DNA of 20,000 nucleotides from an uncultured virus (IMG/VR IMGVR_UViG_3300015608_004663) (lineage: Duplodnaviria; Heunggongvirae; Uroviricota; Caudoviricetes), in the IMG/VR virus record IMGVR_UViG_3300015608_004663, one strand, 5' to 3'. The notes beneath the pieces were generated by a model that did not search any database, had not been told where the DNA came from, and saw only the letters and a list, made by a program, of their open reading frames with translations. The position numbers and the translations under genes were made by a program. Below are positions 1-14,185 of this stretch, piece after piece (the stretch's first letter is position 1; every line of letters begins with the position of its first letter).

Positions 1-554
1 TCTTTAGATCCGTCATTGTTAACTGAAGATGTTACAGTTGGCATGCCGACAGCGCCAAGAAACATTATGATAAAGGGCGCTAGCAACGCTAGCATGATCA
101 GCGTCGATCCGCGGCCGACGAATTTGATTCCAAACATGCACGCGACCGCGCAGACAGCGATCATGATCGATCCAGCAAACCACGCAGGAGAGAAAAGATT
201 CATGTCTGCACTCAGCGCTGGAAATATCTTGGCAAGATATGTCACGAACAGCGTTGGGTAGATCGCCATGTCAAAGAAGCTCATAGCCAGCGCAGACCAA
301 GCTAGCATTGAAGCCATGAAAGTTCCATTAGATCTTTTGATCCAATCGTAATATCCGCGGCTGGCAGGGTGGGCTGCTGCCATCTCACCAACAAGCATCG
401 CTATTGGTAGCGCCCACACAAAAGGCACGATCAGTATGACGATCAGAGATAACTTCCAACCAAGAGCTGCGATTGTTTCTTCAAGAGCGTACGGTCCACC
501 AGAAACAATGAAGAATGTAGTTGCTGCTAGTGATAGCGGTGTTAACTTGTTCAT
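1..554 (-). CDS. APC-superfamily amino acid/polyamine permease, 3'-partial (runs off the left edge; absent from ORF track)
   Basis: Manual translation from ATG at 554: MNKLTPLSLAATTFFIVSGGPYALEETIAALGWKLSLIVILIVPFVWALPIAMLVGEMAAAHPASRGYYDWIKRSNGTFMASMLAWSALAMSFFDMAIYPTLFVTYLAKIFP... It is open to position 1 with multiple TM segments. The SGGP, 'E..P...GYY.W' and 'D.A.YP.LF..YL' motifs match PUT/RMV1-like APC transporters. GGAG upstream. Confidence 0.88.
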   Translation of the reverse strand, partial: MNKLTPLSLAATTFFIVSGGPYALEETIAALGWKLSLIVILIVPFVWALPIAMLVGEMAAAHPASRGYYDWIKRSNGTFMASMLAWSALAMSFFDMAIYPTLFVTYLAKIFPALSADMNLFSPAWFAGSIMIAVCAVACMFGIKFVGRGSTLIMLALLAPFIIMFLGAVGMPTVTSSVNNDGSK

Positions 555-710: not shown

Positions 711-1391
711 TTAAGCGTATCGCAAGAAGAAATCATTTGTTTCTGAAGCAGAAACTTGCTCAAGAACGCACAAAACATCTTCAAACGAATCAAGATCAAC
801 TGATTCATTGTGAATCATACCTGACTCAAAATCAGGCTCTTTCGCAGTCAACCTCCATAGCAGCGTTGGTGAATCGCGAGTCTGACCGATCTGCTCAACG
901 ATAACGCAAGTATCACCAATTGATACGTGAGATTCGTGCTGCAAGCACATGTTCAGATCACCAACTCTAACTGCTTTGCCAGCGTCAGCGCTCTCTTCTG
1001 GCACGCGCACCGTGTACATCTCTAATCGAGATCTTGTCATGCTATCAATGATAGCATTTGGGCGCCACTCAACAAGATCTCGCACGATCTGCATCGCTGC
1101 AGACGTTCCCACCATCTCAACTGAGAGAAGCGGCCGATCACAAAAAGATGCAGCGATTGAAAATCCTCGCACAAACTCACCGCGATCATTCTTGCCCAGA
1201 ACAGAAAAAATGTAAATCAAGTCAAGCGCTGATTGCTGCTTTGGCTTCAGAACAACAACGGGTACTGATCCGCTCTCTAAAGATAGAAGCTCCACATCAA
1301 GATCTGAGCGAAGATTTCTTGCACACGTAGCAATGATTGACAGAGTTTCTTGTGGGTCAGCCACTGGCATGCGTAATTCTAGCGTTTGCAT
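711..1391 (-). CDS. hypothetical protein (226 aa)
   Basis: Long ORF with GAGG RBS, co-oriented with neighbours; no motif recognised. Confidence 0.7.
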   Translation of the reverse strand: MQTLELRMPVADPQETLSIIATCARNLRSDLDVELLSLESGSVPVVVLKPKQQSALDLIYIFSVLGKNDRGEFVRGFSIAASFCDRPLLSVEMVGTSAAMQIVRDLVEWRPNAIIDSMTRSRLEMYTVRVPEESADAGKAVRVGDLNMCLQHESHVSIGDTCVIVEQIGQTRDSPTLLWRLTAKEPDFESGMIHNESVDLDSFEDVLCVLEQVSASETNDFFLRYA

Positions 1392-1431: not shown

Positions 1432-2376
1432 TCAGCACTTGCAAATCTGCACTTCATCACAGAGCGATCTGATCGCTTTCTCTACTGCGCTCTCATACAC
1501 GTCAAACTCAGCAGATCTTGGCAAATCTCCAGTTTCTACTAGCTGCTCGATCTGATTCTTGACGGTTCCAATATCTCGACCAGATAGATTCCATTTATCT
1601 ATCAACCAATTACCGAATCCTTTCTTGAGGAGAGGTGGCATCGCGTCTTCTGCAATGACGCGCTCCATCTTCGCAAGAAGAGCGTCTGCATTTTTGTGCG
1701 CAGCGCGAATCTTAGCTGGATTTCTTGTAGTGAGATCTGATCTTGATAGAATCATCAGATCTGATGCGCGAGGACCACATTCTTTAACGAATCGTCTCAC
1801 AGCGCTGTCTGACCACTCACTGGAGTGCTCTGCTGGGCGCAAGTGGTGAGCAACTAGCCAAGAGACATCATCAATGAGACTCTGCGAGACCTTTGCATCG
1901 CGCAAGACAGCCTCAGTTATGCGAGCTCCGACTATTGGATGATTGTAAAACGTTGGTCCTTTTCCCTCAATGAGCTTGAAGGTGTCTGGCTTGCCAATAT
2001 CGTGAAGCAGTGCTGCTAGACGCAAATTAAGTGAATTTGGCACGCCTGCGATAACAGCAAGCGTGTGCTCCCACACGTCTTTGTGGCGCCTGTTTGGTTC
2101 TTGCGATAGCTTGATCAGACTATCTATTGTGGGAATGATCAGCGATAGTCCTCCGCAAGCATAGAAGACGCGCAAACCAAGCGCTGGGTTTTTCTCTGTT
2201 AGAAGAACGCAGAGAGCGTCGAGCGCTTCTTTTGTCGTTAGCGACCGCTCGTTTCTGAACGCTGAGCAAGCTCTGATCGATTCAGGCACGCCCGCGCTTG
2301 TTAGCGTCAGTGACGTAGATGCAACCCAGAGCGCTGCAGCGACAGCGTCTTTTTGATTTGATAGTGTGTGCGTCAT
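1432..2376 (-). CDS. HD-domain (HDIG) phosphohydrolase resembling the C-terminal part of CCA-adding enzyme/tRNA nucleotidyltransferase, with no nucleotidyltransferase head
   Basis: Motifs HKDVWEHTL, LRLAALLHDIGKP, FYNHPIVGA, HHLRP, WSDSAVRRF, SRSDLTT, and a C-terminal G..IG tail. No GGxVRD/DxD motif in the N-terminus. Confidence 0.88.
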   Translation of the reverse strand: MTHTLSNQKDAVAAALWVASTSLTLTSAGVPESIRACSAFRNERSLTTKEALDALCVLLTEKNPALGLRVFYACGGLSLIIPTIDSLIKLSQEPNRRHKDVWEHTLAVIAGVPNSLNLRLAALLHDIGKPDTFKLIEGKGPTFYNHPIVGARITEAVLRDAKVSQSLIDDVSWLVAHHLRPAEHSSEWSDSAVRRFVKECGPRASDLMILSRSDLTTRNPAKIRAAHKNADALLAKMERVIAEDAMPPLLKKGFGNWLIDKWNLSGRDIGTVKNQIEQLVETGDLPRSAEFDVYESAVEKAIRSLCDEVQICKC

Positions 2377-2669: not shown

Positions 2670-3045
2670 TGTTTCGATTTAAAAAATGTTGATCTTGCAA
2701 AAGATTCAAGCGTGAATTTGTGCCTTTGACGCAAACAAAACTGTGCAAAATACGTTAGAATCATGTTTGCGCACAAAGACCAGTGCCGAGTCTGCAGCGT
2801 CAGCGCTCTACAAGATTGTGAGCGCAGCAATTCAAAGTAGGGTCAGCGCGTCAGATTTAATAACACACTGCATGATCGCAGTGCACAGATTTGTGCACTG
2901 GGTTGAACGGTGTAATAATATGAACCATGAAAATCAAACACTTGATTGAAATTATTGATGACGTGTTAACGCTGAAGCGCTTAGTGAAACAATCTACGAT
3001 CTGTGCTTGCTGTTTTCTTGCAGCGCTGTGTATCATTAAAAACAA

Positions 3046-3531
3046 ATGAACATCTTTATTTTAGATGAAGATCCCGCGATCGCAGCGCAATCGCTAGCAG
3101 ATCAGCACATCAACAAAATGATAGTTGAGCACTGCCAGCTGCTTGCAACAGCTCATGACAAAAGCATCTCACCGTACAAGCACACTCACATCAATCATCC
3201 GTGTGCAAAATGGGTAAGAAAATCTTTCGCAAACTATGTTTGGCTCGTTGAGTGCACGGGTGAGCTGCTGTGCGAGCGATCGCACAGGTGGCCAGATCGA
3301 AAAATTCATAAAACTGATGCTGTCTGGAGATGGTATGCTGAAAATGCGCATCTAGCCAACTGTGAAATCATCTACCCGATGACACCGTTCGCTCAGGCGA
3401 TGCCTGACATGTTCAAGGGAGATGATGCAGTCGCTGCTTACAGAGCGTACTACAAAGCAAGAAAGATGCTGCTTAGAAACAAACCAGCTGCTTGGACCAA
3501 CAGAGACAAGCCAGCTTGGTTGCTTACGTGA
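3046..3531 (+). CDS. pyrimidine dimer DNA glycosylase / T4 endonuclease V superfamily protein
   Basis: MNIFILDEDP..AAQSLADQHINKMIVEHCQLL, YKHTHINHPCAKWVR, FAQAMPD, AVAAYRAYY..K and W..R.KPAW are signatures of this family. TTGCTG-N18-TATCAT upstream (3007-3036). Confidence 0.88.
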   Translation: MNIFILDEDPAIAAQSLADQHINKMIVEHCQLLATAHDKSISPYKHTHINHPCAKWVRKSFANYVWLVECTGELLCERSHRWPDRKIHKTDAVWRWYAENAHLANCEIIYPMTPFAQAMPDMFKGDDAVAAYRAYYKARKMLLRNKPAAWTNRDKPAWLLT

Positions 3532-3538
3532 GCTCGCA

Positions 3539-3790
3539 TCACTGAGCGTGCGCCCAGCGCTCGCGCTTCTTTGGCAGATCACCAAAACACATCTTCACAA
3601 GCTTGATTCTAGCGTGAAGAATATCGTACCTGATATCGCGCGTTTCTACGCGACCGTCATAACGCAGCAGCGTTAGCGTTAACGCTTCACAGCGAGCGCT
3701 CTTTCTTGTAACTGCAAGAATCATTGACAAGCAGATGTTGCTAAAATTTGCGTCTATCACGACGCCTGGCATTGTGTATTCAGTTTGCAT
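3539..3790 (-). CDS. hypothetical protein
   Basis: 83-aa ORF convergent with the glycosylase; no motif. Confidence 0.5.
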   Translation of the reverse strand: MQTEYTMPGVVIDANFSNICLSMILAVTRKSARCEALTLTLLRYDGRVETRDIRYDILHARIKLVKMCFGDLPKKRERWAHAQ

Positions 3791-3809
3791 TTTCAGCTTT
3801 CGATAGAAA

Positions 3810-3986
3810 TCACAAAGAGAAGTGAAGCAAGCTTAAAGAGCTTGCTGCTTGATGATCGCTGCAAGCTTTCGACATCTCTATGAGATTTGAGATCTGGTGC
3901 TTGATATCGCTGATAGGCACGCCGCTTCTGACGCTCCATTTTAGCAGCGCGTGTTTAATATCAACAATTGCTTCAACGTCTAGCAT
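3810..3986 (-). CDS. hypothetical protein (MLDVEAIV...)
   Basis: AAGGAG RBS 6 nt before ATG 3986; divergent from rnpB. Confidence 0.55.
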   Translation of the reverse strand: MLDVEAIVDIKHALLKWSVRSGVPISDIKHQISNLIEMSKACSDHQAASSLSLLHFSL

Positions 3987-4021
3987 GAAACGCTCCTTTT
4001 GTTTTAGATCTAAACTTTCTT

Positions 4022-4059
4022 GCAAAAAAGTGCACTTTTTTGCGCGGGCACATTAGATT
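4022..4059 (+). promoter_or_regulatory. putative rnpB promoter within a perfect 22-bp palindrome
   Basis: GCAAAAAAGTGCACTTTTTTGC (4022-4043). GTGCAC(4030-4035)-N18-TAGATT(4054-4059) ends about 7 nt before the P1 helix. Confidence 0.55.
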
Positions 4060-4066
4060 CAATGTA

Positions 4067-4436
4067 ATCGAGCTGCTCAGTCAATCGAGAGTCGCAGAGC
4101 TTGTGCAAAAAAGCAATCAGCTCTGAGGAAAGTCCGAGCTTCACAGAGCGTAGCGCTAGCTAACAGCTAGTCAGAGCAATCTGAAGAACGTGCAACAGAA
4201 AGCAAACAGCCGAAGTCTTCAAGACTGGCAATGGTGAAACGGTGCGGTAAGAGCGCACCATGTCACTGGTGACAGTGACAGTTTGGTAACTCCGCTAGAA
4301 GCAAGATCGCGCAGAGAGTGATGATGCTGCTCGCGTAGCTCTCGGGTAGATCGCTAGAGCGATGCAGTGATGCATCGCCAAGACAAATGACTCTCTAACA
4401 ACAGAACTCGGCTTATGATTGACTGAGCAGCTCGAT
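4067..4436 (+). ncRNA. rnpB: RNase P RNA, bacterial type A
   Basis: Conserved GAGGAAAGTCCGAGC (4125-4139) and ACAGAACTCGGCTTA (4401-4415) form P4 with CCGAG/CTCGG pairing. Perfect 20-bp P1 (4067-4086/4417-4436). P2 GAGAGTC/GACTCTC. Also AACAGAAAGCAAACAGCC, GGTGAAACGGTGCGGTAAGAGCGCACC (P13), P14, the GGTA L15 motif and P18 GCGATGCA-GTGA-TGCATCGC. Confidence 0.97.
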
Positions 4437-4440
4437 CAGA

Positions 4441-5184
4441 TCAGCGAGCAAATGAATTTTTCATGATAGATCTTGAATCCCACCGCGATCCTGGCTGGAA
4501 GCTCTTTGAAACGATCTTGTATCGTGCGATAAGAGCATTTTCTCTGCAGAGCTTGATGTAAGCTCCCTCTCTCTGATCTATTGCAGAGTAAGCTGATTTT
4601 CCCTCTCGGTGTGAGATGACAATAGATTTAAACTGCTCTAAATTTGGGATCGTTTTCGTGCAGAGCAAGCCATGAACCACTGAAAACCCTGATTTTTGCA
4701 GGGCTTCTCTAGCAGAGATAGAATCAATGAAGTGGCGCTCAGACGGGATCCAAACATCATACGCTAAAAACACATCTGGCAGCGCATTGTACTTGATAGA
4801 GTGACAAGCGAACAACCACTCTCCGTACACAACGACTCTTTCTCCTAAAAGCTGAGCGAGTGATTCAAACAGCGCTTTGCGCTGGTACATCCACGTCCAT
4901 AAAGAAGAGAATTGCATCTTTGCAGGCGTCTTAGCGCTGAAGCTCTTTCTCAAGAAGTGATTTCTGTTTCTTGCGATCGGTTGATCTTGCTCATCAAAAG
5001 CTACGCCAAGATTTGCACCGTCAACTTTCTCTTCGATCTGGAGAGAGTCGCAGCTAGAGAGCGCTTGCTTGATCTCATCTTCACTAGCGATCAGATCATC
5101 ACGACTGGTGTTTGCTTCCCATGGAAGGTGCTTAGTGCGCGGGAAATCAAAGATCTCTACTTTTGTCACAGCAGACATGATCAA
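4441..5184 (-). CDS. ATP-dependent RNA ligase (Rnl2/RNA_ligase family, adenylation domain only)
   Basis: FPRTKHLPW, motif I EEKVDGAN, RNRNH, motif III YGEWLFACHSIKY, IIIa FLAYDVW, IV REGAYIK, V RYKIV. Confidence 0.88.
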   Translation of the reverse strand: MIMSAVTKVEIFDFPRTKHLPWEANTSRDDLIASEDEIKQALSSCDSLQIEEKVDGANLGVAFDEQDQPIARNRNHFLRKSFSAKTPAKMQFSSLWTWMYQRKALFESLAQLLGERVVVYGEWLFACHSIKYNALPDVFLAYDVWIPSERHFIDSISAREALQKSGFSVVHGLLCTKTIPNLEQFKSIVISHREGKSAYSAIDQREGAYIKLCRENALIARYKIVSKSFQPGSRWDSRSIMKNSFAR

Positions 5185-5187
5185 ACC

Positions 5188-5277
5188 TCATTTCACACAA
5201 GCTCTCTTGATCATCAGCGCGAGAGCTCGATCGATCGCTTCTTTTATCAGATCTTTCAGATGTTTCGCGCTCAGCAC
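5188..5277 (-). CDS. 29-aa peptide made almost only of the LKxLIKE motif (MLSAKHLKDLIKEAIDRALALMIKRACVK)
   Basis: AAGGAG RBS and GTG start at 5277, TGA at 5188-5190; motif shared with four neighbouring ORFs. Confidence 0.5.
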   Translation of the reverse strand: MLSAKHLKDLIKEAIDRALALMIKRACVK

Positions 5278-5305
5278 AGTGACTCCTTTTTGGCGCTCGC
5301 TCAGA

Positions 5306-5899
5306 TCACTTGAGTCGAATGACTAGCTCTCTGCTCGAAGACGGCGCCCAACCGCTTGTTGACGCTGCCCAGCCTGCGGTCAGCAGCCTTGATGCAAGCT
5401 GAGATGCATCTATAGCGCTCTTCGCTGCTTGAGCGTCTCTACTTGTCCATCTGGTCTTGTCGCGAGCGCTGACGAAGTTGCCAGGGCCGATCTTGATCTC
5501 GCTGCGCCGCCTGCGCAGAAGATCTGCGATCTGCTCGATCGCTCGCTCAGTCGCGCCAGAAGATCTTAACTCAGATTCAACAGTGCTTATCACGCTCTCA
5601 TCTGCGCTGTCGCTCACAACTCTTGATCTGACGCTTGGCAACACGACGCTGTCGCTGGTCGCGATCCACGCCGCGCTCGCTGGATCGAACTTCAGCTCAG
5701 CGGGTGAACCAGGTTCACCCGCGTAGTGCTTACCGCCCTTATCAACTGCGATCACGAAATTTGGGTGCTGCTGCAGCAGCTTCATAGCTGATTTTCTAAG
5801 TGGCGTCACAAGCTTCCCGCTTCTTGGATCCCACAGCTCCAACCGAGACTCGCTGATCACCGTCTCTTTGATCAATTCTCTGATCATTCTTAAGCTCAT
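5306..5899 (-). CDS. hypothetical protein with N-terminal IRELIKE motif; paralogue of 6152-6823
   Basis: SESRLELWDP...P.FVIAVDKGGKHYAGEPGSPAELKFDP aligns with the neighbour; ATACTTA upstream. Confidence 0.75.
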   Translation of the reverse strand: MSLRMIRELIKETVISESRLELWDPRSGKLVTPLRKSAMKLLQQHPNFVIAVDKGGKHYAGEPGSPAELKFDPASAAWIATSDSVVLPSVRSRVVSDSADESVISTVESELRSSGATERAIEQIADLLRRRRSEIKIGPGNFVSARDKTRWTSRDAQAAKSAIDASQLASRLLTAGWAASTSGWAPSSSRELVIRLK

Positions 5900-6151
5900 G
5901 CAAGTTAAGTATAGGCTTCAGATCAAGCGACGCTCTCGACATTTTTGCAGGGCGCTCGCGATCAAAAAGCGCGGCGCCGACCAGTGAAATCATCATTATG
6001 AAAAATCAGAGCAAGCAAAAACATCTAAGTGATCTGTGGGAGCGATCTCGCAATCAAGATCGCAAAGATCTAGAAAAGAGCTGATCGAGCACGGTGCACT
6101 CTGATTCAGATCTTCTCAAATTTATAAGATTCTTATCTGTTACGCGCTAGC

Positions 6152-6835: not shown

Positions 6836-7063
6836 CTATCGCTTCGCTAGCCAGCGAGCGGAGTATCTCGCTGCATCAAGCGCAGCTTTTAAACCTTCAA
6901 CGCCAACTTTGTGAAAATCAAGTGAGTCGCTGTTCTGTGAGCGAAGACTCTTGATACGCAAGTGATGTTTTGCGATCTTTTCAAGAACGTTCAGCGGCGC
7001 GACACTAGTGTCTACTGCTTCTCTGATGATCGTCTTAAGCGAATTTAACGTGTCTGTCTTCAT
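6836..7063 (-). CDS. DUF6900-like protein with N-terminal LKTIIRE extension
   Basis: LEKIAKHHLRIKSLRSQNSDSLDFHKVGVEGLKAALDAA matches my recollection of the DUF6900 consensus (IA..HL.IETLETRNSDSLDFHDV.V...K.AL.AA). Confidence 0.75.
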   Translation of the reverse strand: MKTDTLNSLKTIIREAVDTSVAPLNVLEKIAKHHLRIKSLRSQNSDSLDFHKVGVEGLKAALDAARYSARWLAKR

Positions 7064-8637: not shown

Positions 8638-8740
8638 TCTCGGGAATCTCGTGAGACAGAGTGACCGAATCAGGCGACGAAAAATCTCGGGAAATTTTTT
8701 GTGAACAGCGGCTTGAACTGAACGGCGAGAATCTCGGGAA
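8638..8740. repeat. three TCTCGGGAA direct repeats at exact 47-bp period
   Basis: Copies start at 8638, 8685 and 8732, with A/T-rich flanks. Confidence 0.8.
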
Positions 8741-8812
8741 TTTGTGCGCAGCCCAGGGCACACCCGACCGCCCTCGAGAGCCCTATACATGTTGGCCAGC
8801 CCCAGCCCCCCG

Positions 8813-8850
8813 TTTTATGGGGCCTTTTATGGCCCTTGTTATGGGGCCCC
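8813..8850. repeat. three TTATGG(GG)CC repeats at 12-bp period
   Basis: ATGG at 8817, 8829 and 8841: TTTTATGGGGCC TTTTATGGCCC TTGTTATGGGGCCCC. Confidence 0.75.
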
Positions 8851-13996: not shown

Positions 13997-14185
13997 ATGA
14001 TGACGATGAGCAACCGAGTAGTTGACGCAGGTAACAACGAGACTTGGACAATTGGTTGCTTTCCTCAAGCTGATGGCACGTTTCTAGCGATGACTTTCAC
14101 GGACTCGCGCATCTTCAAGACTCAGAAAGGCGCCGAGAAGTGGCTAGCCAAGCGCGGCTACAGTCTGCGCGGTGAGGTGCTCTGA
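13997..14185 (+). CDS. DUF1391 family protein (YdaF-like prophage protein)
   Basis: DAGNNET..IGCFPQADGTFLAMTFTDSRIFKTQKGAEKWL matches my recollection of DUF1391 (DLGNNES...GVFPNQDGTFTAMTYTKSKTFKTE.GA.RWL). Confidence 0.8.
   Translation: MMTMSNRVVDAGNNETWTIGCFPQADGTFLAMTFTDSRIFKTQKGAEKWLAKRGYSLRGEVL

Follow-up and report, generated by a model that had tools for sequence, protein, structure and literature searches.

RNase P RNA is regarded as a universal, single-copy and vertically inherited housekeeping ribozyme, which trims the 5' ends of tRNAs. Here we describe a complete bacterial class A RNase P RNA at positions 4067-4436 of a 20,000-nucleotide stretch of DNA from an uncultured virus (IMG/VR record IMGVR_UViG_3300015608_004663; this whole stretch is called the window below). 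It is probably a functional RNase P RNA gene of a tailed wastewater phage that is large, uncultured and rII-bearing. The translation-related genes known from phages include tRNAs, transfer-messenger RNA (tmRNA), and tRNA-modifying and tRNA-repair enzymes, and a canonical virus-borne copy under selection would add a ribozyme to this set. Such a copy would prompt one to ask how an RNA subunit of foreign origin works with the protein subunit of the host, and a 370-nucleotide (nt) RNA offers a simple test system that can be assayed on pre-tRNA. The rnpB gene serves as a marker gene and in genome-completeness checks, and viral rnpB copies would confound both uses. The gene and the element ahead of it are the following.

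4067-4436, plus strand: class A RNase P RNA gene (rnpB-like), 370 nt; assigned from a full-model RF00010 match, a terminal inverted repeat, the z-score of the fold and compensatory pairs
4031-4059, plus strand: promoter-like element with TGCACTT at 4031-4037, a 16-nt spacer and a -10-like TAGATT at 4054-4059; delimited by alignment with two related loci, L030 and L031

Identity, fold and conservation of the RNA

Rfam (cmscan) matched a single RNA family in the 20-kb window, RF00010 (RNaseP_bact_a). The match runs from 4077 to 4430 on the plus strand with a score of 277.3 bits (gathering score 100 bits; E 5.5e-90), and it covers model positions 1-367 of 367 and is not truncated. In the cmscan alignment, both halves of P4, the J11/12-P12-P13-P14 block and the L15 GGU motif are present, and the L14 and L18 loops are of the GNRA type. 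The two P4 strands with the adjoining J3/4 and J18/2, GAGGAAAGUCCG and ACAGAACUCGGCUUA, fit the consensus at high posterior probability; L030, L031 and an Acinetobacter rnpB share both stretches without change. The specificity domain (P7-P14 with J11/12, P13 and P14) and L15 GGU are aligned with no large deletions.

The terminal helix P1 reaches further than the Rfam match. Positions 4067-4086 are the exact reverse complement of 4417-4436, forming 20 Watson-Crick pairs, and because these perfect pairs extend past the match we set the RNA gene at 4067-4436. A first-pass annotation of this DNA, made from the letters alone, had claimed a full type A RNase P RNA with conserved P4 halves, P13/P14 and L15 GGU, and the Rfam match over the whole model bears this out. 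Of its coordinates, 4022-4436, the end is exact, but the start takes in the upstream promoter-like region and the RNA itself begins at 4067. Its description of the perfect 20-bp P1 as unusually long needs some softening: the 20 pairs are exact, but such a helix is uncommon though not unique. The longest perfect terminal run has a median of 9 in 77 bacterial rnpB loci, two of which reach at least 20, and a run of at least 15 occurs in none of 34 RNase P RNA copies on viral contigs.

The window RNA folds at -153.8 kcal/mol, with z = -6.0 against 100 shuffles, and 4067-4436 contains no open reading frame (ORF) of at least 50 amino acids (aa) in any frame. Phage attachment sites derived from rnpB, in which a 3' fragment of the gene stands with an integrase, were considered as a source and rejected: the gene is of full length, and no integrase family is found among the 62 ORFs of the window, which were scanned against Pfam and PHROG.

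Conservation of the RNA was assessed with L030 and L031, two metagenome loci that share the surrounding gene block. The RNA is the best conserved DNA of this block, being 86.8% identical to L030 over 318 nt; identity of the flanking DNA to L030 is 68% in the HD gene region, 70% in the permease, 74% in the DenV-like gene and 76% in part of the ligase. RNAalifold predicts 110 pairs for the window, L030 and L031, of which 14 have changed on both sides and still pair, while 4 are broken, 3 of them in the length-variable P3. The compensatory pairs lie in P1, P3, P12, P14, P18 and others, with three each in P12 and P14, and this covariation rests on two independent lineages. The RNA is kept by purifying selection on its structure.

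Comparison with bacterial rnpB genes gave distant matches. A 19-mer from the P4 region is found in at least 120 bacterial loci from many phyla, where the best identity to the window RNA is about 70% among the matches listed; the same 19-mer has 0 matches in IMG/VR. Among 401 sampled genomes of one phylum, 308 matched, the best at 70-71% over most of the RNA and at most 77% over about a third of it, and 381 plus 381 genomes of two further phyla contained none better (E up to 1e-28). The rnpB of E. coli is 70% identical over 41% of the query. Across the at least 120 pattern-selected loci listed and the 1,163 sampled genomes, no bacterial rnpB exceeded about 71% identity over the greater part of the RNA. 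A tree built from 159 rnpB cores joins the window with L030 and L031 in a single clade, at 100% support in the Shimodaira-Hasegawa-like approximate likelihood ratio test (SH-aLRT), and the path distance from this clade to the nearest bacterial rows is 0.86. Because the best identity to sampled bacteria is about 70-71%, the RNA is not a recent host capture or a contaminant; a bacterium closer than those sampled may exist.

Among GenBank phage records, matches to the RNA fell in host flanks or in stretches of cellular appearance, and these candidates were rejected. In Acinetobacter phage MD-2021a (L001; CAKLQF020000022.1, 39360-55648), the match belongs to a host flank with the order coaD-fdx-rnpB-tRNA-Met past the integrase; metabolic genes are also present in the host chromosome part of this record, and the host rnpB is unannotated there. 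In Microcystis phage MaAM05 (L354; MW495066.1, 110321-120471), a match with E = 4 stands amid cellular fabI, engB, mtgA and glyS, and this part of the record looks like bacterial DNA. Matches from the plasmid collection were in megabase Acinetobacter or Neisseria replicons, at 68-69% identity, and were likewise set aside.

The RNA could be a passenger, a cellular rnpB that the phage lineage has taken up and still retains although infection makes no use of it. Phages bear many accessory genes of unclear use, and the block around the RNA includes a permease, to which L030 adds a transporter of the MFS type. Two lineages whose proteins are only 38-74% identical have nevertheless both kept the RNA, as the best conserved stretch of the block. 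The balance of 14 compensatory pairs to just 4 broken ones (3 in P3), the conservation of the promoter-like element and the failure to find a close bacterial donor in the sampled loci and genomes also speak against neutral carriage, which we consider quite improbable.

Relatives, phage setting and assembly

Gene order around the RNA was compared with that of related loci. The conserved block occupies the left part of the window and ends with the RNA and the RNA ligase gene; its members, and two other genes with Pfam matches, are listed here.

3-554, minus strand: amino-acid permease, N-terminal part, continuing beyond the window; PF13520, E 1.5e-10; left edge of the conserved block
711-1391, minus strand: acidic, conserved protein of 226 aa with no family in Pfam or PHROG; its counterparts in L030 and L031 are 51% identical
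1432-2376, minus strand: HD-domain protein of 314 aa; PF01966 (HD), E 1.6e-11; phrog_2244 "tRNA nucleotidyltransferase", profile positions 184-344 of 392
3046-3531, plus strand: DenV-like pyrimidine-dimer glycosylase (phrog_624) of 161 aa; PF03013, E 3.5e-5; phrog_624, E 1.6e-49
3539-3790, minus strand: conserved ORF of 83 aa; a 44% identical ORF in the same place in L030 and L031; no family
3810-4025, minus strand: conserved ORF of 71 aa, divergent from the RNA gene; matched in position by a 51% identical ORF in L030 and L031; no family in Pfam or PHROG
4441-5184, minus strand: RNA ligase of 247 aa; PF09414 (RNA_ligase), E 1.5e-21; phrog_24030 and phrog_548 "RNA ligase"
6836-7063, minus strand: DUF6900 protein (Pfam)
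13997-14185, plus strand: DUF1391 protein; Pfam, E 1e-21

The window's ligase protein is known from 14 contigs of up to 190,941 bases, and its nearest relatives are 61-63% identical. Scans with a ligase alignment returned 80 metagenome loci and 28 IMG/VR loci. The 5' motif of P4 was present in 4 of 109 loci (L001, L030, L031 and L036) and its 3' partner in L001, L030 and L031. Of the 80 metagenome loci, 7 were run against Rfam: L030 (303 bits) and L031 (299 bits) each contain a full RNase P RNA, and the remaining five have none. L030 and L031 are also the two closest relatives by ligase (62%), and in both of them the RNA comes directly after the ligase gene in the same inverted, convergent arrangement as in the window. 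The order shared by all three is permease, ORF of 226/238 aa, HD protein, small ORF, DenV-like protein, two small ORFs, RNA and ligase, with protein identities of 38-74% between the window and L030/L031. The permease orthologue of L030 occupies the same place and is full length (445 aa).

Genes beyond the block place L030 among phages. Directly upstream of its ligase gene are rIIA (phrog_612, E 2e-92) and rIIB (phrog_609, E 7e-63), and past the permease are a second RNA ligase, an NTP transferase and an MFS transporter. This region of L030 (14814-20118), with its PHA02142-like second RNA ligase, NTP transferase and MFS/POT-type transporter, is also present in L031. To our knowledge, membrane transporters are unusual phage cargo. 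More distant ligase relatives (L032, L036 and L038) sit among phage tRNA genes. The whole window gave no megablast match in 50,697 phage records or in E. coli genomes, and neither the ligase alone nor an alignment of the HD protein found relatives in IMG/VR.

Within the window, 6 of the 62 ORFs reached the Pfam cut-off (permease, HD, Pyr_excise, RNA_ligase, DUF6900 and DUF1391), and 8 had a PHROG match at E <=0.001, with a ninth at E 0.0095. The phage families are accessory only: phrog_624, phrog_2244, phrog_548, phrog_2555, phrog_751 and phrog_11654. No rnpA, integrase, ribosomal, rRNA-operon or other core cellular family was found among these ORFs. Of the neighbours that the first-pass annotation had named, the DenV-like glycosylase, the RNA ligase and the DUF1391 protein were recovered as Pfam or PHROG matches, and its arrays of ORFans are borne out by many small ORFs that have no family. 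The same annotation had assigned the RNA to an element or virus rather than to a cell. The scarcity of ORFs with a family, the absence of cellular core genes from the window, the syntenic loci L030 and L031 and the rIIA/rIIB genes of L030 agree with that assignment and support a phage, not cellular, setting for the window RNA.

A cellular origin of the contig, in which the RNA would be the usual chromosomal rnpB flanking a prophage or genomic island, would account for the amino-acid permease gene at the left edge of the window. It would also agree with the phage collections, where rnpB does occur in the host flank of a prophage (the Acinetobacter record) and in a record with cellular genes. 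The permease, however, lies within the block conserved in L030 and L031, amid a second RNA ligase, an NTP transferase and rIIA/rIIB, and the 62 ORFs include no integrase or housekeeping family. Together with the lack of a sampled bacterial rnpB above about 71% identity over most of its length, this makes a cellular contig very unlikely.

Assembly was checked in wastewater metagenomes. Positions 3000-6000 occur in runs of two studies, one of which may be the source of the window, while the other is independent. Contigs from the independent study correspond to 3604-4583 (1 difference), 3215-4434 (0 differences) and 4405-4931 (0 differences), and they bridge both junctions of the RNA; the window is therefore not an assembly chimera here. 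This answers a concern of the first-pass annotation, which had named a chimeric join around 4.0-4.4 kb as a finding that would refute its reading. Stretches of rnpB are conserved among organisms, and short foreign pieces pile up at 4226-4260 in two runs, so bacterial rnpB reads could in principle have been joined into a phage contig. Set against the bridging contigs, with their 0-1 differences, and the two diverged relatives in which the position and orientation of the RNA are the same, such an artefact is barely credible. Separately, one contig of run X5 joins 4429 to 5295 and so skips the ligase gene, at a depth of 2.2 and with 25 letters on its short side; this joint may be a deletion variant or an artefact and is too weak to interpret.

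Neighbouring genes and possible role

The RNA gene is on the strand opposite to that of every neighbour between 3539 and 8122. It is convergent with the RNA ligase gene, whose stop codon is 5 nt from the end of P1. The KxDG motif of the ligase is invariant in 12 homologues, and the protein has a remote likeness to the solved Rnl3 and Rnl5 ligases (E 0.003-0.01). The HD protein, which is 73% identical in L030 and L031, resembles the C-terminal region of class II tRNA nucleotidyltransferases (PDB 3wfo-3wfs, E 3e-13, chain residues 318-456); an AlphaFold2 model built from 3 sequences had a mean predicted local distance difference test (pLDDT) score of 53 and was too poor to use. A polynucleotide kinase family was not detected in the 62 window ORFs, where the ligase and an HD phosphohydrolase-type protein are present. 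No RnpA-like protein was found by Pfam among the small neighbours, and their isoelectric points (6.4 to 9.5) are unremarkable. Because the RNA stands beside an RNA ligase and an HD protein that resembles CCA-adding enzymes, we interpret the block as a putative tRNA maintenance or repair neighbourhood.

Expression signals were sought upstream of the RNA. The TAGATT hexamer (4054-4059) ends 7 nt ahead of the first base of P1. TGCACTT is invariant in the alignment of the window, L030 and L031, and the two relatives carry a perfect TATAAT at the place of TAGATT; the distance from hexamer to P1 is 7-9 nt across the three. The element at 4031-4059 may thus be a promoter, judging from its composition and conservation. 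No RNA data set is listed as containing 3000-6000. In run X14, which is labelled metatranscriptomic and flagged as probably DNA, a 209-nt contig is identical to 4106-4314, with nothing from the flanks; it was not used as evidence either way.

In the reading that we prefer, the RNA gene, which runs counter to the genes around it, would be expressed from a promoter of its own, and the transcript would fold into a canonical class A ribozyme. It would then bind the RnpA protein of the host, which we propose because no phage rnpA was found. During infection the assembled ribozyme would remove 5' leaders from tRNA precursors, and it might also act on further RNase P substrates. The capacity for tRNA maturation could in this way be kept or raised while the phage takes over the cell.

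Several results weigh against this reading. The first-pass annotation had given the RNA its own promoter-like element, and the -10-like hexamer and TGCACTT are indeed conserved in the relatives, but a scan for the sigma-70 consensus did not call the upstream site. No terminator was found downstream of the RNA gene. No capsid, portal or terminase gene was seen in the window, a view limited to 20 kb of the contig, and the rIIA protein of L030 is just 28-33% identical to those of cultured phages, so the virus belongs to an undescribed lineage of large phages. The 20-kb window contains no tRNA genes and neither do 31 kb of L030 and L031; a phage substrate, such as the element's own tRNAs that the first-pass annotation had proposed, is therefore not visible nearby. 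Finally, an rnpA-like protein was sought among the 62 window ORFs, 20 ORFs of L030 and five other rnpB-bearing viral records and found in none of them, and the RNA would therefore depend on a host protein with which it has no shared evolution.

Some of these points could be explained if the phage keeps the RNA mainly for a purpose other than tRNA maturation. It could be a decoy that ties up RnpA and thereby stops or diverts RNA processing by the host, a replacement for a host RNase P RNA that infection or a defence system destroys, or a processor of phage transcripts. With no phage rnpA found, phage and host RNAs must compete for one and the same RnpA, and there are no tRNA genes close by. The neighbours are of the RNA-repair type, which in known phages counter host attacks on tRNA, as Pnkp and Rnl1 of phage T4 counter PrrC, and a 20-bp P1 could serve stability rather than catalysis. 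A decoy, however, requires just the protein-binding part, yet the whole RNA is conserved and covarying, including P10-P14 of the specificity domain and the L15 GGU, which pairs with the 3'-CCA of tRNA. Other viral copies stand in tRNA arrays, which points to tRNA processing. We therefore hold a role of this kind to be possible and clearly less likely than one in tRNA maturation. A decoy role is discussed for a poxvirus RNase P-like RNA in a review (PMC3001073).

We also put forward, tentatively, a wider scheme. Phages may have taken over RNase P RNA repeatedly, and in this lineage it may serve no tRNA array but act within an RNA-repair and counter-defence module made up of the ligase, the HD protein that resembles CCA-adding enzymes and the ribozyme. 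The ribozyme would seize RnpA, mature repaired or freshly transcribed tRNAs again while the host is attacking its own tRNAs, and deprive the host RNA of its protein. We give this scheme about the same modest chance as a role outside tRNA maturation.

Host range was considered from the few proteins with phage relatives. The DenV-like protein is 74% identical in L030 and L031 and has tblastn matches in 581 phage records. The nearest phage relatives of the DUF1391 protein, at 48-57% identity, come from Escherichia, Serratia, Pantoea and Salicola phages, which is a weak hint at a gammaproteobacterial host. The DUF1391 and DenV-like proteins match phages of many Gammaproteobacteria and cyanobacteria at 40-57% identity, and this is not decisive for the host. 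The 226-aa protein had no usable Atlas match.

Elsewhere in the window, a GC-rich stretch of about 120 nt (8732-8850) is 85% identical to L030 979-1096, where the overlapping ORFs are just 51% identical at the protein level. It folds as nested stems of the GGGGCC type and has no Rfam match at E <=1. In this phage lineage the stretch may encode a small structured RNA or have a regulatory function.

Other viral copies and known systems

Viral records were searched for further RNase P RNAs with a 15-base P4 pattern, which occurs in at least 114 IMG/VR stretches; 24 of these were picked for their large contigs and then run against Rfam. A full class A RNase P RNA was found in 12 of the 24 loci, with scores of 149-308 bits. 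In nine of the 12, tRNA genes lie within 6 kb on either side (1-34 per 12 kb, most inside arrays), and in three there are none. The RNA is in or beside tRNA clusters in L273, L319, L258, L253, L254, L257/L278, L268 and L251, on contigs of about 40 to 463 kb, and most such clusters are arrays of 14-34 genes. L319 belongs to a record of 369 kb that has terminal repeats and matches a terminase. Five rnpB-bearing IMG/VR records were searched whole: three are estimated complete, one has terminal repeats, two have a Terminase_6N match, and none has Terminase_6C or rnpA.

L291, L245 and L293 (308, 247 and 173 bits) resemble the window in having no tRNA genes within 6 kb on either side, and L293 has a group I intron about 3 kb from its RNase P RNA. 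In L298, an IMG/VR record of 202,737 bases, a tmRNA gene and dozens of tRNA genes lie within 12 kb and the 15-base P4-like pattern occurs as well; Rfam gave no RNase P RNA above its threshold there, and the copy may be a diverged one.

We found no description of a phage-encoded RNase P RNA in the open full-text literature (subscription-only papers lay outside this search), and a term search of the P finder paper showed no mention of phage, virus or plasmid. The only viral case found in that literature is an inactive RNase P-like RNA of poxviruses, mentioned in a review (PMC3001073). According to that review, the camelpox (orthopoxvirus) RNA has a partial secondary-structure resemblance to RNase P RNA and does not cleave pre-tRNA (PMC3001073). 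In contrast to this partial and inactive RNA, the window RNA is a full, high-scoring member of the bacterial family.

The IMG/VR copies are nearer counterparts. Like the window, they consist of class A RNase P RNAs on records classed as viral, with no rnpA in the five records searched whole. They differ in that 9 of the 12 are near tRNA genes, whereas the window copy has no nearby tRNA gene and is linked to an RNA ligase instead. They are at most about 70% identical to the window RNA, and none of their neighbouring proteins is shared with the window.

With the bacterial class A RNase P RNA (M1 RNA of E. coli, encoded by rnpB), the window RNA has in common the full-model match, P4, the specificity domain, L15 GGU and GNRA-type loops. 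Unlike bacterial rnpB, it stands on a phage contig with no rnpA found, has at most about 70-71% identity to the sampled bacterial copies over most of its length and closes with 20 perfect pairs in P1. Its orientation is antisense to the surrounding genes, with a convergent ligase gene 5 nt away. The bacterial holoenzyme includes a cognate RnpA (PF00825), which was not found in the 62 window ORFs and 20 ORFs of L030.

Phage-borne machinery for translation RNAs is known from Pnkp and Rnl1 of phage T4 and from phage tRNAs and tmRNAs, which maintain the tRNA supply in infection. The window resembles the T4 system in that parts concerned with translation RNAs occur together with an RNA ligase on a phage. 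T4 depends on the RNase P of its host for its own tRNA precursors. In the window, where a polynucleotide kinase was not detected among the ORFs, it is instead the ribozyme itself that is borne by the phage.

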